Of a stretch of DNA of 64,000 nt, positions 4,708 through 48,351 are shown in pieces. The position numbers and the translations under genes are program-made. Below the pieces are notes generated by a model, which ran no database searches, was not told the DNA's origin, and worked only from the letters and a program-made list of their open reading frames with translations. The stretch is from NCBI GenBank assembly GCA_040879965.1, contig JBBDJI010000007.1:29393-93392 (forward strand). The letters are read 5' to 3'. Positions within the stretch are counted from its first letter, which is position 1. The number at the start of each line of letters is the position of its first letter. This stretch comes from Candidatus Babeliales bacterium. GTDB lineage: Bacteria > Babelota > Babeliae > Babelales > JACPOV01.

Positions 4708-5295
4708 ATGAAAAAATTTTGTATTTATTTTTATTTATTCAATATTCTTTTTGTACAAACTATTTTTCCACTTAAAATTGATCGAGTAATTTTATCTACT
4801 AATGATAATCCGCTTTATATTCAATTCTGGCCGCTTGCAGCGCGTGCATGGCAAGAGATAGTTGGCGTGCGACCAACACTTGCATTAATTGGCAATAATG
4901 AAATTCCTATTGATGAGCAATACGGTGATGTAATTCGATTTACACCAATTGAAGGAGTGCCAACATCTTTGTATGCGCAATGTGTTCGTTTGCTTTTGCC
5001 TTGCTTATTTCCTGCAGATGGCTGTATACTTGCCGATATCGATTTGATTCCATTACAGAAAAAATTTTTCATCGATAAAGTAACCAAAATATCTGATGAT
5101 CGATTTGTTATTTACAAAAGTAGAGCATATTGGTTTTATAAGCCAAGAATTTATATGTGTTATAATGCGGCAAAAGGATCAACTTTTCAAGATATTTTTG
5201 GAGTGACTTCTTATGAAGAAATTCCAGAAATGATAAAGCAATGGGCACAATTAAATATTGGTTGGGCAACCGATGAAATTATGGGGCTGTCCTAG
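4708..5295 (+). CDS. Hypothetical GT-A-like (DXD motif) nucleotide-sugar transferase-like protein. The native C-terminus is replaced by IS insertion.
   Basis: The ORF has a hydrophobic N-terminus and an ILADIDLIPL DXD-like motif. The stop codon TAG lies inside the left inverted repeat of the IS1595-family element. Joining the flanks predicts the original end ...TDEIIVLLFKKVVEV*. Confidence 0.4.
   Translation: MKKFCIYFYLFNILFVQTIFPLKIDRVILSTNDNPLYIQFWPLAARAWQEIVGVRPTLALIGNNEIPIDEQYGDVIRFTPIEGVPTSLYAQCVRLLLPCLFPADGCILADIDLIPLQKKFFIDKVTKISDDRFVIYKSRAYWFYKPRIYMCYNAAKGSTFQDIFGVTSYEEIPEMIKQWAQLNIGWATDEIMGLS
5283..5295. repeat. IS1595-family left terminal inverted repeat GGGGCTGTCCTAG
   Basis: Exact reverse complement is present at 6548-6560. 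Confidence 0.8.
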
Positions 5296-5490
5296 ATAAC
5301 TAAAAAGGTTATACTAGGAAACATGAATATTCGACGTTCAAAATTAAGTAAAAATAAAAGAAGAAAATTATTAGAACATTTTGTTGCAGGAACAACAGCG
5401 AGAACGGCGGCTTCTATTATTGGTGTAAATAAAAATACTGCACAATTATTTTTTCATAAATTACGAGAAATTATAGGTAAAGAACAACTC

Positions 5491-6038
5491 GGCTGCAAGC
5501 AACCGAGCTTTCAAACTACTTTGAGTTGCTTTCCCCATATTTCTTGAGCGTCCATTTTCTTTAGTTGATTTCTAACATATTTCCGAATTACTTCATCATT
5601 CGCGTTACCAATCGTTTCTACAAAAAAACTTTGAGTCCAAAGTTTTCCACCCCAAAAATATTTTTTCCTTATTTCGGGATATAATTTGAAAAAATTTCTT
5701 GCAGATATGCTTTTTATAATCTGCATAATTTTTGATGGACATTGCTTTGGCTCAGATTTTACTATCATATGTATATGATCCGTTGGCACTTCTAATTCTA
5801 CAATCTCAATATTGTAATCATATCCTATTTTGTATATTATTTCCTTCAAATTTGATCTGTATGGTTCTCTAAAAATTTTATGTCTGTATTTTGGAATCCA
5901 TACAAAATGATACATTATACGAAATACGTGATGCGAATTCCTAGTTAGTTCCCTAGCCGGATCCTTCATAATGAGCTTTCGCTCATTATAACGCTATCCA
6001 GCTAGGGAGCAAGCTCCCTAGATTTCCGCTACGCGGTT
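5491..6038 (-). mobile_element. IS200/IS605-family element (IS200 subgroup, tnpA only) inserted inside the IS1595 transposase gene
   Basis: Contains an intact 152-aa Y1/HUH transposase gene on the minus strand. GCAAGC-apex subterminal hairpins lie at both ends (CTCGG-CTGCAAGCAA-CCGAG 5495-5514; AATGAGC-TTTCG-GCTCATT 5976-5993; CTAGGGA-GCAAGC-TCCCTAG 6003-6022). Boundaries are inferred from restoring the IS1595 transposase reading frame (…GKEQL|KKQKSGIVFEG…) and are approximate. Confidence 0.7.
5511..5969 (-). CDS. tnpA: IS200/IS605 family transposase TnpA (Y1 HUH transposase)
   Basis: 152 aa. YHFVWIPKYR N-terminus, HUH motif DHIHMIV, and a C-terminal catalytic-Tyr helix RKYVRNQ. Confidence 0.85.
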   Translation of the reverse strand: MKDPARELTRNSHHVFRIMYHFVWIPKYRHKIFREPYRSNLKEIIYKIGYDYNIEIVELEVPTDHIHMIVKSEPKQCPSKIMQIIKSISARNFFKLYPEIRKKYFWGGKLWTQSFFVETIGNANDEVIRKYVRNQLKKMDAQEIWGKQLKVV

Positions 6039-6547
6039 AAAAAACAAAAATCAGGAATTGTTTTTGAAGGAGAAGTTGAAGCGGATGAAAGCTATTTTGG
6101 AGGAAAAAGAAAAGGAAAACGAGGAAGAGGTTCAGCGGGAAAAGTCCCTGTTTTTGGCCTTTTAAAGCGTGGAGGAAAAGTTTTTGCTGAAATAATACCA
6201 GATGCAAAAAGTAAGACTTTGATTCCTATAATCAAAGAAAAAGTGAGACCCGACTCTATCGTATATACTGACTCATTACCCAGTTACAATGCTCTTGATG
6301 TTTCTGAATTTAAACATCTTCGAATAAATCATAGTAAATTATTTGCTGAAAATCGTAACCATATCAATGGAATTGAAAATTTTTGGAATCAAGCAAAACG
6401 ACACATGCGAAAGTTCAATGGTATACCAAAAAAAAATTTTTATTTATTCTTAAAGGAGTGTGAATGGCGGTTCAATTTTTCATCACCAAAAAAACAAATT
6501 GATATGCTGACTCAGTGGATAAAATCAATAAAATAATTACTTAAAAC

Positions 6548-6560
6548 CTAGGACAGCCCC
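6548..6560. repeat. IS1595-family right terminal inverted repeat
   Basis: CTAGGACAGCCCC, the reverse complement of 5283-5295. Confidence 0.8.
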
Positions 6561-6805
6561 AAAATTATTGTATTGTTATTTAAAAAAGTGGTCGAAGTGT
6601 AAAACGCATATCAAAAAACTTGGATATACTAAATATAAGCATCGACGCATAGATCGAGATAACCAATTAAAATACAAAAAAAAGAAATTATTAAAGCAGT
6701 ATTATGTTGAAATGAATTGTCCAAAGCCATATAATATGCACAAAAATCAAATTGATCCTATTTTTCATTTGGCGTTATTTGCAGCTATACAACGAAGAAA
6801 ATAAG

Positions 6806-6846
6806 TAAAGGAAGGCTTTGCAAACAAGGCTTTCCTTTACTTACTA
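6806..6846. terminator. Putative hairpin terminator for the minus-strand gene 6859-7434
   Basis: 9-bp stem AGTAAAGGA/TCCTTTACT, followed on the minus strand by a T-rich tract. Confidence 0.35.
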
Positions 6847-6858
6847 AGATTAATAATC

Positions 6859-7434
6859 TTAACGTTTTTCCCAACTCATAATTTTTTTGAAAAACCTTAA
6901 TTTTTTCCTAGTATGCCTATCCTTAACTTGCAATTTTGGATAATCAGTTGTAGTTTGACGTTCTTTATCAAAAATATGTATATCATTGGTTCCAAAAATA
7001 AAAGCTGGTTTTATAGAGGGGTAGCTTGTGCGTCCACTTTCAACATCAGAAAAATCTGTATAGCGAGGGTTATAGATCCATTTTGACCAATTGATTTCTT
7101 GTTCAGATAGGTCTTGAAATGTTTTTTCCAAATTTATTAATTTGCCAGTTTCAGAATTATATTTAAAGCAAGGCACATTGCAGGTTGATCTATATAAATA
7201 ATGTAATAAGTATAGCTCTTCTTCTATACATTTTAAGCCATACACTTCAGAGATTAAAAAAACATTATCTTTGCTGGTAATTATTTGATTTATATTATTA
7301 ATAAGCTTACCATTTCTAGGTGTTGTTTTTATCTCTATTTTTTTAGGTATTTCCATAGGAAAAATAGGGAAAGTTATGCTAGTTAAGAATAATAATTTTA
7401 TAAAAGTTAGTTTGCGCATATTTAATAAAATCAC
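6859..7434 (-). CDS. Hypothetical secreted protein
   Basis: 191-aa ORF with a hydrophobic N-terminal signal-like segment (MRKLTFIKLLFLTSITFPIFP). No recognisable domain. Confidence 0.45.
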   Translation of the reverse strand: MILLNMRKLTFIKLLFLTSITFPIFPMEIPKKIEIKTTPRNGKLINNINQIITSKDNVFLISEVYGLKCIEEELYLLHYLYRSTCNVPCFKYNSETGKLINLEKTFQDLSEQEINWSKWIYNPRYTDFSDVESGRTSYPSIKPAFIFGTNDIHIFDKERQTTTDYPKLQVKDRHTRKKLRFFKKIMSWEKR

Positions 7435-7866
7435 TTAATTCCTTTAAGTGGTAAAATAGTTTAAATAAATTTCTATATGATAATAATATGACTATTGAAC
7501 CATGTCAAATATGATTTTTAACTGAATAAATTAAGAATTGTTTTTAAAGTATCAAGTATCGATTTTATTATAGTATTCATAAGAGAATAATGATTGTAAT
7601 TTAAAAGAAGCTGTTTTTTGTATTTTAATTACTCAGTCAATGTTAATAAAAAAACCGGATCATTCAAATTAGATTTGAGAGTGTATAACAATCAATTAAT
7701 ATAACCGAAGAAATACAAGAATGATTTGGTTAGAGTAAAAATTTATAATAAAAGATTGATAGCTTGCATTATATTATTGACGATTTTTATTTATTGTTTG
7801 ATTGTCTTTTTTTTGAGATTATAAAAAATTGCTATTTAGTTTTGTAAAAAATGTTTTTTTTAATAC

Positions 7867-7896
7867 TTGACATTAATTTGATGAATCTGTTACCTT
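7867..7896 (+). promoter_or_regulatory. Sigma70-like promoter (TTGACA-N17/18-TACCTT) aimed at the structured element at 7903
   Basis: -35 TTGACA at 7867-7872 and a -10-like TTACCT/TACCTT at 7890-7896. The -10 is weak. Confidence 0.35.
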
Positions 7897-7902
7897 GAAA
7901 TT

Positions 7903-7998
7903 AAGAGATGGGAGGGTAGTTGAAAGCTTGCTCTCTCATGTGCGCAAGTACATGCGAGGGATATAGGGTTAAACCTATAAGCTTCCATCTCGTTTTTA
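7903..7998 (+). ncRNA. Candidate small structured RNA (~95 nt, unclassified) with its own promoter and an intrinsic terminator-like 3' end
   Basis: GC-rich island in a 600-bp AT-rich intergenic region. A 10-bp closing helix pairs GAGATGGGAG (7905-7914) with CTTCCATCTC (7982-7991). Inside is a 13-bp hairpin capped by a GCAA (GNRA) tetraloop (CTCTCTCATGTGC-GCAA-GTACATGCGAGGG). A second TATAGG/CCTATA hairpin follows, then GTTTTTAT. No plus-strand CDS lies downstream. Confidence 0.4.
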
Positions 7999-8038
7999 TA
8001 GATTAGGGAAGTTTTCTATAAAATTCTTTTTTATTACT

Positions 8039-9025
8039 CTATCTTTGAGTAAAATATTTCCATCCAAACCAGCCCGCGTAAATTGCTAATCCAGTTAAGC
8101 CAATTCCTACACTAATTTTATAGAAATTTTTTATAGAAAATGATTTATTTGATTGGGTTTTAGAAATGTTTTCAATACTTGATTTTTCATTAGGATGGTT
8201 TACATGGTTTAATAAAGCTTCTTCTTCTCCTTCTGAATCATTTAGTTCATTTTTTTTATTGTTTGCCGTAAGATATTCTTTTTTTTCTTCTTCAGTTTCT
8301 GATAACACAGAGGAGCTGAAGCTTTCACTTTCTGTAGAAGACATATCAGATGTATTAAGGCTATATTCGCTATCACTTTTTTTTGTGATTGAATCTATCT
8401 TATTATCTTCTTCACTAGAACCTATATCCAAATCGGTACTGCTTTCACTCTCAGTTGTTTTATCTTTTTCGTCGTCATTGCTACTAGAAAGTTCGATTGA
8501 AGAATAATCATTTTTATTTGGTATTACCATCTGGTGTGTTTTTTGTAGAAATTTTTCTCCTGGAGTTATTCGGTTGCTTTTGTTTTGTATAGTAAACTTT
8601 TTTACTTTATTTCTATCCGTTGTCCCTAGAATGAGTGCGCCAAGCTTTTCTCCATAACCGCCTCGCTCGTAAAAGTTGACATATACCCAATTGCCTTGCC
8701 GAATCTTTATCCAATCTGCTGTTGATAGAGAAGCAAGTTGTCCTTGATGAATAAAATTATCTTTATCCGATTCATATTGAAAATAAGAAGTTGTAGCTAA
8801 AAAATATGAATTTGGGGATTGAGAATCAAGCATCTCTGATAATGTTTTTACTTCATAATTATCAAAATTGATTCTTATATTCTGATATTTTTTTCCGCTA
8901 AATATACGTATTTTTTCATTATTAATATTGTTATTCTTATCTAAAATTGAATTGCATAATTCCATTGATAATGTTTGATTAAATATACTGATTAATATAA
9001 TAAAGGTTATTATCTTATTTTTCAT
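8039..9025 (-). CDS. Hypothetical secreted/tail-anchored protein with an acidic Ser/Glu/Asp-rich low-complexity region
   Basis: 328 aa. N-terminal signal peptide, a ~150-aa globular region, ~100 aa of S/E/D-rich disorder, and a C-terminal TM helix (ISVGIGLTGLAIYAGWFGW). Confidence 0.5.
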   Translation of the reverse strand: MKNKIITFIILISIFNQTLSMELCNSILDKNNNINNEKIRIFSGKKYQNIRINFDNYEVKTLSEMLDSQSPNSYFLATTSYFQYESDKDNFIHQGQLASLSTADWIKIRQGNWVYVNFYERGGYGEKLGALILGTTDRNKVKKFTIQNKSNRITPGEKFLQKTHQMVIPNKNDYSSIELSSSNDDEKDKTTESESSTDLDIGSSEEDNKIDSITKKSDSEYSLNTSDMSSTESESFSSSVLSETEEEKKEYLTANNKKNELNDSEGEEEALLNHVNHPNEKSSIENISKTQSNKSFSIKNFYKISVGIGLTGLAIYAGWFGWKYFTQR

Positions 9026-10493: not shown

Positions 10494-10682
10494 TAACCTT
10501 TTTTATAAATTATGGTTTTTATTTTTGCATAGCATATTGAGTAGAATGGAGACAATTTTTTAAGAAATTATTTTATAAACCGAATATCTTTTTTAATAGA
10601 TTACTTTGAATTGCAATTCTTATAACGCTATGCGCACAGTACCAACCTTTTTGCTTGTACAAAAAAATTGGTTAAAAATACC

Positions 10683-10696
10683 CCAACAGCTGTTGG
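10683..10696. repeat. Perfect 14-bp palindrome CCAACAGCTGTTGG
   Basis: Read directly from the sequence. A similar CCAACG-TTC-CGTTGG hairpin occurs at 14471-14485. Confidence 0.5.
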
Positions 10697-10711
10697 AACA
10701 TTCTTCCGCTC

Positions 10712-10790
10712 ATATAGAAGACCACTCATACTTCAGGTTTTCAACCTTTGTCTTCAGGTCTACGATGAGCTACCGGATTGATTATAAAAG
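10712..10790 (-). repeat. Copy A of a GC-rich intergenic repeat (core CCGGTAGCTCATCG...GAAGAC.AAGGTTG), 25 nt downstream of the stop of gene 10815-11522
   Basis: On the minus strand it reads ttttataatcaatCCGGTAGCTCATCGtagaCCTGAAGACaAAGGTTGaaaAACCT...GTCTTC. It can fold as a GAAGAC/GTCTTC stem enclosing an AGGTT-GAAA-AACCT hairpin. About 75% identical over ~55 nt to 14576-14632. Confidence 0.5.
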
Positions 10791-10814
10791 TTAATTTTGA
10801 GATTTATATTTTTT

Positions 10815-11678: not shown

Positions 11679-14390
11679 ATGAAAGAAAATGAAAATAAAA
11701 AATGGTGGACATTATCAGTTGATCAAGTTATTAATGAATTGCAAACAAATCAGCAAGAAGGCTTATCATCGCAAGAAGCTACTCAGCGATTAAAAAAATT
11801 TGGTGAAAATACGCTGCCAAAACAAGAAGGCCCTTCGATTTTTTATTTAATTTTACGGCAATTTTCAAGTTTAATTATATGGGTGCTTATTGCGGTAATG
11901 ATTATAAATATGATTCTATTTCATCATATAGATGCTTTGGCAATTGCAATTATCATTTTATTGAATGCTGCTATTGGTTTTTTCCAAGAATATAGTGCTG
12001 AGCGAACGATGGAAGCATTACGTGAATTAACACAACCTGAAGCAATAGTTGTGCGTGATGGTGAAGTTAGACAAATTCCAGCAGTAGAGTTAGTGCCTGG
12101 TGATATTGTGCAAATTGAGGCGGGCAATAAAGTGCCTGCTGATGGAAGGATAATACAAGAAGATCGATTGTCGACCCAAGAGGCAGCTTTGACGGGTGAA
12201 TCCGCGCCTATTTCAAAAAATGCTGACGCCTTATCCGATGCAACGTTATCTGTAGCAGATCAAGAAAATATGTTCTTTATGGGAACTGTTGTGGTACGTG
12301 GGAATGGTGTAATGGTGGTAACAAAAACAGGTATGAAAACTGAATTAGGATCCATTGCAACCATGATTAAAGCGCAACCAGAAGAAAAAACGCCACTTGA
12401 ATTACAAATAAAACAACTGAGTCGTCATTTATTATTATTATCATGTGGTGTGATTATAATTATTTTTTTTCTTGGATTATGGCAAGAAATTAATTGGTTA
12501 ACAATGTTACTGACTGCGTTAAGTTTAGCCGTTGCCGCAATTCCTGAAGGATTGCCAGCCGTACTTACTATAACACTTGCGATTGGTGTGAGAAAAATGG
12601 CTGAACATAATGCACTGATCAGACGATTATCTTCAGTAGAAACATTGGGATCCACTTCGGTTATTTGTGTCGATAAAACAGGTACTTTAACTAAAAATGA
12701 AATGATGGTACAAAAAATTTGGGTAAATCAAAAAGGAATTGAAGTCACTGGAAGTGGTTATGAGCCGGAAGGTGATTTTTTAGAAAATGAGCAAAAAATA
12801 GATGTGCAAAATTATGAAGAATTAATGCAACTTATGCGTATTGGTGTTTTGTGTAATAACGCTGAGTTGCAATATGAAGATGAACAAAAAGGTTGGGAAA
12901 TTATTGGTGATCCAACTGAAGGAGCATTATTAGTTCTAGCCCAAAAAGTAGGATTAGAAAAAAACCCATTAGAAGAAGAAAATGCATTAATTAAAGAAAT
13001 TCCTTTTGAATCAGAACGGCAGCGTATGAGTATAGTTCGTAAAAAAGACGATCAGCAGATATTATATATCAAAGGTGCACCAGGTATTATTGTTGAACGG
13101 TCAAAATCAATTTTAATTGATGGCAAAGAAGAATCATTAACCGAAGAATTAAAAGCGACTATTAAAGAAACATATAATGATTTTGCAGATCAAGCATTAC
13201 GAGTATTGGCGCTCGCATATGCGCTAATATCAACAGACAATATTTCTGCTGATTTAGAGCAAGATTTAATATTTGTTGGGTTGGTGGGCATGATTGATCC
13301 ACCACGTGAGGAAGCAAAAAAATCAATTGCATTATGTAGTAAAGCTGGTATTCGCACTATAATGATTACCGGTGACCATAAAAGAACCGCAATAGCAATT
13401 GCAAAACAATTAGGTTTAATCGATAGTCATTTTATTGCAGTTACTGGTCGGGAATTAAATGAAATGAGTGATGAGCAATTAAAAGAAAAAATTGAGGATA
13501 TTGTAGTTTATGCACGTGTTTCTGTTAAGCATAAAATACGTATTATCCAAGCATGGAAAGAACGGGGCAATATTGTGGCAATGACTGGAGATGGTGTTAA
13601 CGATGCACCAGCAATTAAAGCTGCTGATATTGGTATTGCAATGGGGATTACCGGTACTGAGGTGACAAAAGAAGCTTCTGATATGATTATTTTGGATGAT
13701 AATTTTGCTTCAATTGTCTATGCGGTTAAAGAAGGGCGTGGTATTTACGATAATATTATTAAAGTGGTGAATTACTTAATTTCAACAAATCTTGGAGAAA
13801 TATTATTTATTTTTTTTAGTATTTTGATTGGTATTATAGTGCCGGGAGGTAAATATTACGTATTATTAACTCCAATACAAATACTCTGGATAAATTTAAT
13901 TAGTGATGGCTTGCCCGCACTTGCGCTCGCCGCTGACCCATTGACTCCTAAAGTTATGGAACAAAAACCACGTGATCCAGCAAAACCAATTTTAACATTA
14001 TATTTTATAGTTAGATTAATTATAACCGGAATGATTGTTGCTTTTATTACATTGATTGCGAGTTATTATGGATTAACAAAAAATATTAAAACTGCCCATA
14101 CTATGGCACTTACCAGTTTAATATTATTGGAATTTGTTCGTATACAAATGATTCGTGCTGAATATAATCTTTCTATTTTTTCTAATTGGTGGTTAATAGC
14201 TGCCTTAATTGGATCTTTTACTTTGCAGCTTTTATTAATTTATATTCCAATATTTCAATATATTTTTGGCTTAACAACTTTAGGGTTTATTGAATGGGGA
14301 GTAATTTTAGCTTGCGTGCTTAGCGGGTGGATTTTATCTATTTTTGCAAATAAAGTTTTAGAGAAATTTGTACGTAACAAATTTAATTAA
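11679..14390 (+). CDS. Cation-transporting P-type ATPase (type II, Ca2+/Mg2+-ATPase-like)
   Basis: 903 aa. Phosphorylation motif ICVDKTGTLT, hinge TGDGVNDAPAIKAADIGIAMG, and N-terminal cation-ATPase-N-like region and 10 TM topology. Confidence 0.85.
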   Translation: MKENENKKWWTLSVDQVINELQTNQQEGLSSQEATQRLKKFGENTLPKQEGPSIFYLILRQFSSLIIWVLIAVMIINMILFHHIDALAIAIIILLNAAIGFFQEYSAERTMEALRELTQPEAIVVRDGEVRQIPAVELVPGDIVQIEAGNKVPADGRIIQEDRLSTQEAALTGESAPISKNADALSDATLSVADQENMFFMGTVVVRGNGVMVVTKTGMKTELGSIATMIKAQPEEKTPLELQIKQLSRHLLLLSCGVIIIIFFLGLWQEINWLTMLLTALSLAVAAIPEGLPAVLTITLAIGVRKMAEHNALIRRLSSVETLGSTSVICVDKTGTLTKNEMMVQKIWVNQKGIEVTGSGYEPEGDFLENEQKIDVQNYEELMQLMRIGVLCNNAELQYEDEQKGWEIIGDPTEGALLVLAQKVGLEKNPLEEENALIKEIPFESERQRMSIVRKKDDQQILYIKGAPGIIVERSKSILIDGKEESLTEELKATIKETYNDFADQALRVLALAYALISTDNISADLEQDLIFVGLVGMIDPPREEAKKSIALCSKAGIRTIMITGDHKRTAIAIAKQLGLIDSHFIAVTGRELNEMSDEQLKEKIEDIVVYARVSVKHKIRIIQAWKERGNIVAMTGDGVNDAPAIKAADIGIAMGITGTEVTKEASDMIILDDNFASIVYAVKEGRGIYDNIIKVVNYLISTNLGEILFIFFSILIGIIVPGGKYYVLLTPIQILWINLISDGLPALALAADPLTPKVMEQKPRDPAKPILTLYFIVRLIITGMIVAFITLIASYYGLTKNIKTAHTMALTSLILLEFVRIQMIRAEYNLSIFSNWWLIAALIGSFTLQLLLIYIPIFQYIFGLTTLGFIEWGVILACVLSGWILSIFANKVLEKFVRNKFN

Positions 14391-14432
14391 AACGCATATT
14401 TTAATGAATTGGTCTCATGCCGGTTAAAGTAT

Positions 14433-14458
14433 AAGGGTATTGCATGCCCAATACCCTT
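14433..14458. repeat. Perfect 10-bp inverted repeat hairpin AAGGGTATTG-catgcc-CAATACCCTT
   Basis: Read directly from the sequence. Lies in the GC-rich intergenic island between the convergent P-type ATPase and rseP genes. Confidence 0.5.
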
Positions 14459-14575
14459 AACACAAGGGCACCAACGTTCCGTTGGATCGTTTATCGCGAA
14501 AAACTCAGACCATTCATACTGCGGATTAAAATCCTCGTTTTCAGATCTTCAAACAGGTTCGCTTCATGGTATAAA

Positions 14576-14632
14576 TTTTTATAAAATGATTCCGGTAGCT
14601 CATCGGGGATCGGAAGACGAAGGTTGTAAAAA
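14576..14632 (+). repeat. Copy B of the GC-rich intergenic repeat (tttttataaaatgattCCGGTAGCTCATCGgggatcgGAAGACgAAGGTTGtaaaaa)
   Basis: Shares the CCGGTAGCTCATCG and GAAGAC-AAGGTTG blocks with 10737-10790 (reverse complement). It lies 3' of the P-type ATPase in the same orientation relative to the upstream gene as copy A. Confidence 0.5.
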
Positions 14633-14710
14633 GTTGATGCAGCGCATACAGCGTTCGAGTGATTTATAGTTACAAATAATCTATCATGGAAAGGAAATTA
14701 AATTATAAAG

Positions 14711-22017: not shown

Positions 22018-22578
22018 TTATTTTTCTTGCCCAAGCATTTTTTTAGTTAATACCCGCATAATACCAAAAGCAAATTGTTCAGCAGCTTTTGGTCCGGTTG
22101 CAGTAACTACTAAATCATCAGTTACAATATCATGATTTTTTTCATAAATAGCGCCATTTCCAACTAAAATTGTTTCGAGTGCATTATCACCATCCCAACC
22201 AGTGGCCTTTAATCCTCGTAATGCATCAGCTTTTGCTAAAATGCGGGTTGAGATACAAATAGCGCCATAAGGAATTTTATGCTTTTTTGCTTGCGCAGCG
22301 ATATGATAGCTTGTTGGGTTATCAAGGCAATCCATTGCACCAGGGCCACCGATAAAAAATACGCCATCATAATCAGTTACATCAAGTTTATCAATAGTTA
22401 GATCGACTGGCGTTGTTGATTTATCTTTGGCTATGGCTCCACCTGGTTTATCACTTGCGGTGAAAACACGAATTTTTGATTCTTCTAAAATTCTTTTTGG
22501 AACGCCATATTCTATGGGATGATAACCCTCGCTTGCCACAATAAACACCACTTTTTTTCCAGATAAATTAATCGACAT
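22018..22578 (-). CDS. DJ-1/PfpI family protein (class I glutamine amidotransferase-like)
   Basis: 186 aa. Nucleophile elbow GAICIS and the overall DJ-1 fold pattern. Confidence 0.6.
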   Translation of the reverse strand: MSINLSGKKVVFIVASEGYHPIEYGVPKRILEESKIRVFTASDKPGGAIAKDKSTTPVDLTIDKLDVTDYDGVFFIGGPGAMDCLDNPTSYHIAAQAKKHKIPYGAICISTRILAKADALRGLKATGWDGDNALETILVGNGAIYEKNHDIVTDDLVVTATGPKAAEQFAFGIMRVLTKKMLGQEK

Positions 22579-23613: not shown

Positions 23614-24036
23614 AAAAGAATAAACCTAAAAAAATCCTCAACTATTGCCTTTTTGGTTGAAAGTATACTACGATAACTAATGAGGACGATGCTCATGTAG
23701 AGCCCCAAAGGATACGGTGAAACCAATTTGGGATTGTGGGTATTGTCCTCTTCTTCTTAATAAATATAAATAATCTTGTAGGTTTCATAAAAATTTATTC
23801 TCAGTTTACTGAAAATAAGAATAAATAGATACCTTTGCCCTATATTCTATTGGAAATTTTAAAATGAATAATGTGGTATTTGCGGCAACCATTGATTTTT
23901 TGTTTCAGTTCAAATTAGAATATATGGTAGAGGGCGGATGTTTTTTGATTAGTAAAAGCAGGTCTTTGAATATCATTTTGTAGAAACGTCTGTCCTCGGG
24001 TTTAAAGTAAATTTAGGGTAAAAAAAGGAAAAAGTT

Positions 24037-24651: not shown

Positions 24652-25015
24652 ATATTCATATTAATAGTGATAAAAAAATATGAAGTTACAAAATACGTTA
24701 CAAACAATTAAAAATTATTTAAAAAACTTGGGGAAAAGTCCTATGTTGCCTTCAGTTTTAATAAGAAGTGGTGTGCCGATGCGTTCTGATGTCAAATATA
24801 TAAAAGAAAAGAAAAAAGGTATAATTGGAAAATTTTGGGATCGTATATGGTCCTTTTTTTCCTAAAAAGATATTGGGTTTTTAAAAAAGAGAAAAATGTA
24901 TAAAAAGCAAAAAAACCCTTGAAACTAAGCGTTATTTTCTATTATGATTAACTATGAAGAGGTAGTTTACACAAATGCATCAAAAATAGAGATTAAGTAA
25001 TCATAAGGAGATAAA

Positions 25016-25201
25016 ATGAAAAATCTTAAAAAGGCAATTTTACTCGTTGGTCTTGTTAGCATGATGTCAAACTTAAGTTTAGCAGCTGCTATTAGAGCCG
25101 GAAATTATAATAATAACGACGATATAGAGATGGATGATGATTTGGATGATGAAGAAGTTGAACTTGAAGAGGAAGTTGAGCTTGAAACAGACACAGATTA
25201 A
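25016..25201 (+). CDS. Small secreted acidic protein (signal peptide plus a D/E-rich tail)
   Basis: 61 aa. MKNLKKAILLVGLVSMMSNLSLAAA, then NDDIEMDDDLDDEEVELEEEVELETDTD. GGAG RBS. Followed by the hairpin TCTGGGAC-attaattt-GTCCCAGA (25217-25240). Confidence 0.4.
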   Translation: MKNLKKAILLVGLVSMMSNLSLAAAIRAGNYNNNDDIEMDDDLDDEEVELEEEVELETDTD

Positions 25202-25258
25202 GATGTGTACGCTTTATCTGGGACATTAATTTGTCCCAGAGCTAAATTTTAAAAGGGG

Positions 25259-31435: not shown

Positions 31436-31463
31436 TTGACAATTGAAAAATATATTCTATTAT
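31436..31463 (+). promoter_or_regulatory. Sigma70-like promoter TTGACA-N16-TATTAT for the SPFH gene
   Basis: -35 TTGACA 31436-31441 and -10 TATTAT 31458-31463, ~60 nt upstream of the ATG at 31523. Confidence 0.45.
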
Positions 31464-31522: not shown

Positions 31523-32476
31523 GTGATGGAAATAATAATAGGAATAATAATTTTTACGGTATTAAGTATATCGCTATTACTGTTCAAATCTATTTATTTG
31601 GTTACGCAAGCAGAAGTTGTGGTTATTGAACGTTTTGGTAAATATAATCGTACACTTGTCCCTGGATTTAATTTAGTTGTGCCATTTGTGGATAACCCTT
31701 GCCGTGTTATTTGGACATATCTTATCTCAGATGATAACGGAAAACATTATATCCGTTACTCAAAAGTTATTGAGAAAATAGATTTGCGAGAATCGGTATA
31801 TGATTTTCCTAAGCAGAATGTGATTACACGTGATAATGTAACCATGGAAATTAATGCGTTGCTTTATTATCAAATTACTGATCCAAAAGCAGCCGTTTAT
31901 GAAGTATCTAATTTGCCTGAAGCAATTGAAAAGCTAACACAAACGACATTACGTAATGTTATCGGTTCAATGGATTTGGATGAAAGTCTTGTTTCTCGTG
32001 ATAGTATTAATGAAAAATTACGTGTGATTTTAGATGAGGCAACCGATAAATGGGGCGTAAAAGTTAATCGTGTAGAATTACAAGAAGTTAAGCCACCAGC
32101 GGACATCCGTCAAGCTATGGAAAAGCAGATGCGCGCCGAGCGTGATCGACGTGCCATAATTTTAGCGGCAGAAGGAAGTAAGCGCGCTGCAATTTTAGAA
32201 GCTGAAGGCATGCAAGAATCTAGTGTTTTGCGAGCTAAAGGTGAAGCGGAAGCACGCATAGTTATTGCGCAAGCGGAAACAAAGGCGGTTGAAATAATTA
32301 AAGCAATAATGCCAGAGCAAGATCCATTACCATATTTAATTGCGATGCAATATATTAAAGCATTACCAGAAATGGCTAAAGGTAAGAATGATAAACTCAT
32401 TGTTGTGCCATATGAGGCTACTTCATTAATTGGATCTTTATCTTCGATTAAAACGATATTTGATAAAATACAATAG
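31523..32476 (+). CDS. SPFH/band-7 domain protein (stomatin/prohibitin-like)
   Basis: 317 aa. N-terminal TM, the SPFH core, and a C-terminal coiled-coil with an AEG/EAE repeat pattern. Confidence 0.7.
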   Translation: MMEIIIGIIIFTVLSISLLLFKSIYLVTQAEVVVIERFGKYNRTLVPGFNLVVPFVDNPCRVIWTYLISDDNGKHYIRYSKVIEKIDLRESVYDFPKQNVITRDNVTMEINALLYYQITDPKAAVYEVSNLPEAIEKLTQTTLRNVIGSMDLDESLVSRDSINEKLRVILDEATDKWGVKVNRVELQEVKPPADIRQAMEKQMRAERDRRAIILAAEGSKRAAILEAEGMQESSVLRAKGEAEARIVIAQAETKAVEIIKAIMPEQDPLPYLIAMQYIKALPEMAKGKNDKLIVVPYEATSLIGSLSSIKTIFDKIQ

Positions 32477-32505
32477 AAAAAGGCGCCAATTATGGTGCCT
32501 TTTTC
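32476..32505. terminator. Bidirectional rho-independent terminator between the SPFH and USP-like genes
   Basis: AAAAA-GGCGCCA-ATTA-TGGTGCC-TTTTT (7-bp stem with one G.U, A-run and T-run flanks), located between convergent genes. Confidence 0.6.
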
Positions 32506-32517
32506 TAAATTTGGCTA

Positions 32518-33681: not shown

Positions 33682-33908
33682 TGTACTATTTCCTTTTTTT
33701 TATTTCATCTGTTCTTTTCCAAGCAAAAGCATATAAAAAATAAATCTTTGAAAGCAATTATTGTGATGTCTCTGTTTTATTTCTTTGTATATTTAATCAA
33801 GAAAGTTGTTAATATTTTAAATAAAAAGAATTTTGGCAGAGATTAAAAAGCGTAATTTATCGAAAAAGACTCAGTTTAACTATGAGAAGAAAAATTTGAC
33901 TATTTTTT

Positions 33909-33962
33909 TGGAGGCTGCCTTAATTGAATGGAGGAAAATATGGAGGTTTCTAGAACTGGAGG
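33909..33962 (+). repeat. Four direct TGGAGG repeats (33909, 33929, 33941, 33957) bracketed by the inverted repeat GGCTGCCTTAA / TTAAAGCAGCC
   Basis: Read directly from the sequence. GC-rich patch ~230 bp upstream of the USP-like gene start. Confidence 0.5.
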
Positions 33963-33992
33963 TTCTTAGAAGTTTAAAGCAGCCCCCCTTCT

Positions 33993-34008
33993 TCCTAGCA
34001 AGCTAGGA
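33993..34008. repeat. GCAAGC-apex hairpin TCCTAG-CAAG-CTAGGA resembling the IS200/IS605 subterminal hairpins at 5491-6038
   Basis: Palindrome TCCTAGCAAGCTAGGA. Compare CTAGGGAGCAAGCTCCCTAG at 6003-6022. Confidence 0.4.
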
Positions 34009-34064
34009 TCTATATCTAAGATACCATAAAAGTTTCAAATTGCAAATATTTCCTCCTGTCAAAA

Positions 34065-37773: not shown

Positions 37774-37807
37774 AAAAAGGCCCTCAAATGAGGGCCTTTT
37801 TTTATGA
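37774..37807. terminator. Bidirectional rho-independent terminator
   Basis: AAAAA-GGCCCTCA-AA-TGAGGGCC-TTTTTTT between convergent genes 36825-37745 (+) and 37802-38503 (-). Confidence 0.7.
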
Positions 37808-48229: not shown

Positions 48230-48351
48230 TTAAAAAATCGTAGGGTATATACTCACTGAGAGCAATATCCTACGATTTAAGTATATCCTAACTGGTTTCT
48301 GATAGCAATTAACACCCATTCGTTAACCGAATGAATGTACCTCCATTTCCC

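Follow-up and report, generated by a model that had tools for sequence, protein, structure and literature searches.

The 64 kb stretch of DNA analysed here (the window) belongs to a MAG of Candidatus Babeliales, phylum Dependentiae (TM6), and is AT-rich, with a GC content of 0.32. Two minus-strand genes, at 6859-7434 (191 aa) and 8039-9025 (328 aa), flank an intergenic region of 604 bp (7435-8038; GC 0.24) that holds the candidate RNA. Both encode secreted-type proteins with a signal peptide, and the product of the 328-aa gene, which is convergent with the candidate, has in addition an acidic Ser/Glu-rich region and a C-terminal hydrophobic helix, together with a sub-threshold match to DUF5728. 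A search of 5.8 billion proteins returned no homologues of either protein besides themselves; these orphans may serve this intracellular lineage in interactions with its host.

In the wider neighbourhood, an SSF transporter gene lies on one side and a glycogen/sugar-metabolism cluster (GH15, GT4, GH57) on the other, and the stretch between them also carries an IS200-type transposase gene, an IS1595 fragment and two orphan genes. The IS200-type gene encodes a Y1 transposase (5511-5969, minus strand; Pfam Y1_Tnp, E 3e-40), while the truncated IS1595 (ISXO2-like) transposase (6219-6536 and 6568-6804, plus strand) retains only the C-terminal half of its DDE domain, and the adjoining positions of this remnant and the IS200 copy suggest nested or decayed insertions. 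The closest relatives of the SSF transporter are just 62% identical to it, the gene order at the relatives' SSF loci is different, and the glycosyltransferase beside the SSF gene is not orthologous. The stretch around the element looks like lineage-specific, possibly acquired DNA.

The GC content of the candidate RNA island is 0.47, versus ~0.20 in the DNA on either side, and the GC-rich island in an AT-rich intergenic region of ~600 bp from which the original prediction set out is therefore real (0.47 within 604 bp of GC 0.24). Pipelines for ncRNA discovery use such GC-rich islands, in long intergenic regions of AT-rich genomes, as a criterion (PMC6429828, PMC11109978). On the plus strand, the structured core (7905-7991) forms a three-way junction with 28 base pairs, supported by its minimum free energy (MFE), comparison with shuffled sequences, its rank among windows and its pairing probabilities. 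The closing helix P1 (GAGATGGGAG/CTTCCATCTC) pairs a 5' strand, GAGAUGGGAG (7905-7914), with a 3' strand, CUUCCAUCUC (7982-7991), in 10 bp, one of which is a G-U pair (G7912-U7984). The junction strand J1/2 that follows, GGUAGUUGAAAGCUUG (7915-7930), is 16 nt long and mostly unpaired, as in the centroid structure; an alternative helix, in which it pairs with 7979-7990, is also possible. Hairpin P2 (7931-7960) consists of 5+7 bp on either side of a U7936/C7955 mismatch, includes two G-U pairs (U7932-G7959 and G7942-U7949) and is capped by a GCAA tetraloop at 7944-7947. A single A at 7961 separates P2 from P3 (7962-7979), a 6-bp UAUAGG/CCUAUA hairpin with the loop GUUAAA, after which AG leads into the 3' strand of P1. 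Both the 10-bp closing helix and the TATAGG/CCTATA hairpin had been correctly predicted, as had the GCAA-capped hairpin, except that the latter has 12 pairs around a U/C mismatch instead of the 13 clean pairs originally described.

The MFE of the 87-nt core on the plus strand is -37.4 kcal/mol (z -5.44), a value that none of 200 dinucleotide shuffles equalled (mean -20.7 +/- 3.1 kcal/mol) and that is little altered in significance when the core is folded with its flanks (z -5.3). In the ensemble, P1, P2 and P3 each have a pairing probability near 1. When MFE was regressed on GC for 5,114 windows (100 nt, step 25) on both strands of the 64 kb, the element ranked second. The fold of the element exceeds chance.

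The sole structure to rank higher is the leader of the IS200-type transposase gene (~5926-6050, minus strand), a type of structured element already known and the most structured stretch of the window, reaching -57 kcal/mol over 151 nt (5920-6070, minus strand). Its stem-loop (~5947-6008, minus strand) has a CCCUAGC/GCUAGGG closing helix around a GAAA-capped hairpin, within which the start codon lies, and it matched no Rfam family. The leader resembles the element in having a closing helix around a GNRA-capped hairpin, and it gives a weak match (14.6 bits, E 0.58) to R1, a covariance model of the element. The two share no sequence similarity, however, and the leader holds the start codon of the transposase gene, whereas the element precedes no gene.

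Read as the minus strand, the core folds to -23.3 kcal/mol (z -2.9), 14 kcal/mol weaker than the plus strand. Its three non-Watson-Crick pairs, G-U in the plus-strand fold, all become A-C mismatches if the minus strand is read. Because the minus-strand fold is weaker and the wobbles are G-U pairs on the plus strand only, folding assigns the element, at the RNA level, to the plus strand.

Upstream of the core lies a promoter-like site with a perfect consensus -35 hexamer, TTGACA (7867-7872, plus strand), and a -10-like TACCTT (7891-7896, plus strand) that fits TAnnnT with an 18-nt spacer; TTACCT at 7890-7895, with a 17-nt spacer, is an alternative. The candidate -10 hexamer is weak, matching at 3 of 6 positions, and the site was not called by a generic sigma-70 scan, which misses it because of this poor -10. 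The original proposal of a promoter thus holds for a TTGACA at the right distance and is less secure for the -10. The predicted transcription start, ~7903-7905, coincides with the base of P1.

TTGACA is avoided in the window, since it occurs only 15 times on the two strands, compared with 43 +/- 6.6 expected, and all 100 dinucleotide shuffles contained at least 15 copies. Seven of the 15 sites are intergenic, though intergenic DNA makes up 10.7% of bases. The fuller pattern TTGACA-N16-18-TAnnnT is found at four sites, three of which lie 36-61 nt upstream of a start codon on the same strand: at 7508-7480 (minus) before the 191-aa gene, at 22643-22614 (minus) before the DJ-1 gene at 22578, and at 31436-31463 (plus) before the gene at 31523. 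The candidate itself is the fourth site and ends at 7896, 8 nt ahead of P1. This loose pattern is equally frequent in shuffled sequence, and the argument concerns the placement of the real sites, not their number. Judged by that placement, the promoter of the candidate RNA appears better supported than the generic scan implies. The depletion of TTGACA and the placement of the fuller sites suggest selection against spurious promoters and provide a usable promoter rule for this MAG.

The proposed 3' end is the U-tract GUUUUUAU immediately 3' of P1 (7992-7999, plus strand), where GTTTTTAT gives U5 right after the helix. A terminator scan called the 3' end of the element on neither strand; it omits P1 and the U-tract because of the branched structure. 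A possible alternative 3' end (7994-8032, plus strand) is formed by a weak all-A/U hairpin, 7994-8002/8015-8023, followed by U6 at 8027-8032, which at -6.1 kcal/mol (z -0.46) is not significant alone. Textbook intrinsic terminators, bidirectional and with A-/U-tract flanks, lie in the window at 6802-6843, 32474-32507, 37774-37801, 63841-63874 and 48230-48275 (minus strand); each is a perfect hairpin of 12-19 bp, and z ranges between -4 and -8. A simple terminator scan of the first 20 kb found 10 sites, compared with 10.4 in shuffled sequence, and missed the hairpin at 6802-6843. The A-/U-rich flanks of P1 are shared with these terminators and the simple shape is not, so that a terminator role for P1 and its U-tract is plausible on sequence grounds. 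Of the 'terminator-like' 3' end originally described, the U-tract after P1 stands; the branched 87 nt are unlike the window's simple hairpins.

On the other side of the intergenic region, a 13-bp long-range helix, AACCGGAUCAUUC/GAAUGAUUUGGUU, spans 7653-7731, with two G-U pairs on the plus strand and a U7 run after it on the minus strand. Its folding is not significant (z -1.6 and -2.1), although a role as minus-strand terminator, before the promoter of the 191-aa gene, is conceivable.

The surroundings of the core also bear on what its transcript could do. The genes on either side lie on the minus strand, and the first plus-strand ORF of at least 100 aa downstream begins at 11679, in agreement with the original observation that no plus-strand CDS follows. 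The stop codon of the 328-aa gene is at 8039-8041 and the element starts 47 nt beyond it, with no minus-strand terminator of the simple A-tract/hairpin/U-tract form between this stop codon and 7991.

Known identities were examined for the element. At the gathering threshold, cmscan with Rfam 15 found no match in the whole 64 kb, and between 7700 and 8100 the only match at E <= 10 was an unrelated, weak one to STnc420 (7700-7731). ARAGORN found no tRNA or tmRNA. The earlier remark that the element matches none of SRP, 6S, RNase P and tmRNA agrees with the Infernal/Rfam scan, which also covered riboswitches, ribozymes, Y RNA and IS-associated RNAs and gave no family at gathering threshold. A riboswitch or cis-regulatory leader of a downstream gene was rejected, given that no plus-strand ORF of 100 aa or more starts between the element and 11679 and that no Rfam family matched. 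An IS200/IS605 end, or a miniature element derived from one, was rejected as well, the element being a single copy in the window with no similarity to 5296-6218. Direct reading likewise argued against an integron attC site: the ends, GAGATGG and CATCTCGTTTTTA, lack RYYYAAC/GTTRRRY core sites. No second attC-like copy lies beyond the neighbouring gene, where the island at 6537-6858 has a maximum GC of 0.36. Nor is the element half of a tandem duplication, as 7700-7865 and 7866-8040 are ~50% identical, which is the chance level, and the 12-mer they share (TTGAWAGCTTGC) is not significant.

The intergenic region also contains a 32-aa hydrophobic ORF, MVRVKIYNKRLIACIILLTIFIYCLIVFFLRL (7726-7824, plus strand), that starts with TTG and lacks a Shine-Dalgarno sequence. 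A type I toxin-antitoxin pair was rejected, because this sole hydrophobic small ORF shares its strand with the RNA and does not overlap it. Most likely the ORF arises simply from T-rich sequence and is not a type I toxin.

Finding homologues of the element has proven equally unrewarding. No similarity to it was detected elsewhere in the window, where it is present in single copy, and sensitive blastn searches of phage and plasmid records gave no real match. Model R1, built from the single sequence and its structure, recovered only the element itself in the window and nothing in ~160 kb from nine Babeliales loci (L002-L006 and L046-L049), with filters on or off; these loci were chosen through the SSF transporter from the six nearest relatives. 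Apart from the NCBI MAG, a single Logan assembly (SRR27977663) contained sequence of this organism, the two being identical over 6.5 kb. Large collections (GTDB genomes, JGI metagenomes and IMG/VR) were probed with exact 16-22-mers. The J1/2 18-mer matched seven times among GTDB species genomes, in unrelated phyla and never with the structure (0/7), and 12 times in JGI metagenomes, never with the fold (0/12); the P2/P3 22-mer had no match in JGI metagenomes, and a 16-mer and a 17-mer gave only chance matches among IMG/VR viral contigs. One JGI match, GGGAGGUAGGGUAGUUGAAAGCUUGCUC... (Ga03075xx; L039 2173-2253, L040 and L042), recurs in several contigs of one project, with surroundings unlike a Dependentiae intergenic region, and was rejected as a homologue in favour of a chance match in GC-richer sequence. 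By sequence comparison, then, the element is a singleton, with no known family or homologue in the collections searched. It resembles the candidates of GC-IGR pipelines, which are likewise islands of high GC content and strong folding within long intergenic regions of AT-rich genomes. Those candidates, however, need covariation among homologues to be accepted, whereas the present element is a singleton (PMC6429828, PMC11109978). A full-text search of the literature gave no paper that, by its title or abstract, concerns a regulatory RNA in Dependentiae (TM6).

We consider it about an even chance (probability roughly 0.5) that the element is a lineage-specific, independently transcribed sRNA of ~90-95 nt on the plus strand, and one that probably acts in antisense to the convergent gene at its 3' end. 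Transcription would start at ~7903-7905, at the base of P1, from the sigma-70-type promoter (TTGACA, 18 nt, TACCTT), and would end near 7997, where U5 follows P1, giving an RNA of ~90-95 nt. Since the 328-aa gene has no simple terminator of its own before 7991, its mRNA probably extends into, or through, the complement of the candidate RNA. With perfect complementarity over as many as 87 nt, the two transcripts could form a long duplex at the 3' end of the mRNA, so that the candidate RNA may act as a cis-encoded antisense regulator of the stability of the 328-aa mRNA or of its 3'-end formation or processing. Judged from this geometry, cis-antisense control of the 3' end of the 328-aa mRNA is most likely, being the most economical mechanism. 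A trans-acting role through the unpaired 16-nt J1/2 is possible as a second option; duplexes of J1/2 with the 5' regions of 55 window genes did not surpass chance in energy, the best scoring -17.1, versus -16.9 +/- 2.0 for a null of shuffled seeds.

Such cis-encoded antisense sRNAs at the 3' end of a convergent gene are known from E. coli, in GadY/gadX, and from the Bacillus type I antitoxins RatA/txpA and SR4/bsrG. The candidate is like these pairs in layout only, as a small structured RNA with a putative promoter of its own, tail-to-tail with a protein gene and with predicted 3' complementarity to its transcript, and has no sequence or structural homology to them. Its partner, moreover, is a secreted or membrane-type orphan of 328 aa and not a small toxin or a regulator, and the overlap of the two transcripts is deduced here from the absence of an intervening terminator.

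In favour of an sRNA gene, we count the fold, its strand asymmetry, the GC island, the placement of the promoter, the U-tract and the absence of a following plus-strand CDS; counted against it are the lack of a homologue and of an Rfam match, the weak -10 and a site among IS remnants and orphans. The IS remnants, the orphan genes and the non-synteny around the element fit passenger DNA equally well. The independent sRNA gene of the original prediction is therefore partly supported, by its anatomy, strand asymmetry, promoter placement and U-tract, while the exclusion of a leader and the terminator label hold only partly.

It is possible, if unlikely, that the element instead serves the minus-strand 328-aa gene as a branched bidirectional terminator or a 3'-UTR stability structure, in which case the promoter-like site on the plus strand would be incidental. 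The element does lie 47 nt past the stop codon of that gene with no other terminator between, and its minus strand still folds (z -2.9). P1 has A-rich sequence upstream (GAAAUUAA) and U-rich sequence downstream, the minus strand continuing as UUAAUUUC, and this A-tract/stem/U-tract layout is that of the window's bidirectional terminators, which likewise have A-/U-rich flanks around a stable helix at a gene end. Those terminators, however, are simple perfect hairpins of 12-19 bp, whereas the element is an 87-nt three-way junction with wobbles and a 16-nt unpaired strand. Folded as the minus strand, it loses 14 kcal/mol and has A-C mismatches in P1 and P2, and a terminator would leave unexplained a perfect TTGACA at promoter distance in a window where this hexamer is avoided. 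A simple intrinsic terminator of the minus-strand gene was rejected on account of the length (87 nt) and branching of the structure, its weaker minus-strand fold with A-C mismatches, and the failure of the scan to call it.

A doubtful alternative takes the element for a functionless remnant of foreign or mobile DNA, such as a decayed RNA gene or a miniature element, in a lineage-specific, IS-ridden island, with a GC content and helices that have not yet decayed. The setting would suit such a fragment, with the IS200-type transposase gene (5511-5969) and the IS1595 fragment (6219-6536) 1.4-2.4 kb away, orphan genes on both flanks and an SSF neighbourhood that is non-syntenic with the six nearest relatives, as would the lack of a homologue or an Rfam match. 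Yet the element resembles neither IS200 ends nor the rest of the window, nor phage or plasmid records, and the direct repeat that flanks it, whose copies at 7838-7860 and 8010-8032 share 83% identity, is what chance would produce in AT-rich DNA. Its helices, furthermore, are intact, and their imperfections are plus-strand wobbles only, which argues for maintenance at the RNA level.

The original dismissal of a leader or riboswitch disposes of a leader for a downstream gene; as an inference it was too strong, because it leaves standing a leader that gates antisense transcription. As such an attenuator or riboswitch-like leader, the element would use P1 and the U-tract to let plus-strand transcription proceed conditionally, as antisense RNA, over the 328-aa gene, a reading that we regard as improbable. 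Its promoter would be immediately upstream and its terminator helix would enclose the junction; AUGGGAG/CUCUCAU pairing would form an early hairpin of -15.3 kcal/mol, and J1/2 can pair with the 3' strand of P1. The final fold is, however, 11 kcal/mol more stable than the best one with the 5' strand of P1 unpaired, no Rfam riboswitch or leader matched even at E <= 10, and there is no conservation that would define a ligand pocket. Terminator-embedded aptamers are known, and the HMP-PP (thiS) riboswitch has a structured domain enclosed by its terminator helix, as the element would have (PMC6478431), but the element differs from it in having no Rfam 15 riboswitch match, no downstream plus-strand gene and no definable conserved pocket. 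We regard as slightly more improbable still an extended version of this scheme, in which a ligand- or protein-binding three-way junction would be the first member of a new class of structured RNAs in the Dependentiae, its closing helix doubling as a terminator that gates antisense transcription into an effector-like secreted-protein gene of this obligate intracellular bacterium.

A small protein gene, encoding the 28-aa Cys-rich peptide MKACSLMCASTCEGYRVKPISFHLVFID from TTG 7920 to TAG 8006, would cover nearly the whole transcript and has a strong Shine-Dalgarno-like GGGAGGG (7910-7916) 3 nt ahead of the TTG, similar to that before the gene at 4708, but it is very improbable, given that its start is TTG, that the Shine-Dalgarno sequence is buried in P1, that its GC3 is 0.39 versus 0.216 in the window's genes, that its synonymous codon usage falls at the 2.4th percentile of 28-codon gene segments, and that coding does not account for the extreme RNA structure.

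GC-rich islands occur in five other long intergenic regions of the window, at 14391-14710, 10494-10814, 23614-24036, 33682-34064 and 24652-25258, with 80-nt GC maxima of 0.41-0.49 and no match to Rfam families. The first contains an 86-aa ORF with a TTG start, and the last has two minus-strand TTGACA sites far from any called gene. These five regions may contain unannotated small genes or RNAs.

In conclusion, an sRNA gene with a possible antisense role is the reading that we favour for the intergenic region beside the 328-aa gene, and at present the element is a candidate rather than a discovery. For the annotation of such MAGs, the -35 hexamer offers a practical guide: it is strongly avoided in genes and, where it is retained, marks real promoters. 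The Dependentiae live inside protists as parasites, are uncultured and have reduced, AT-rich genomes. If validated, an sRNA paired with a lineage-specific secreted-protein gene would provide a first handle on post-transcriptional control in this phylum.
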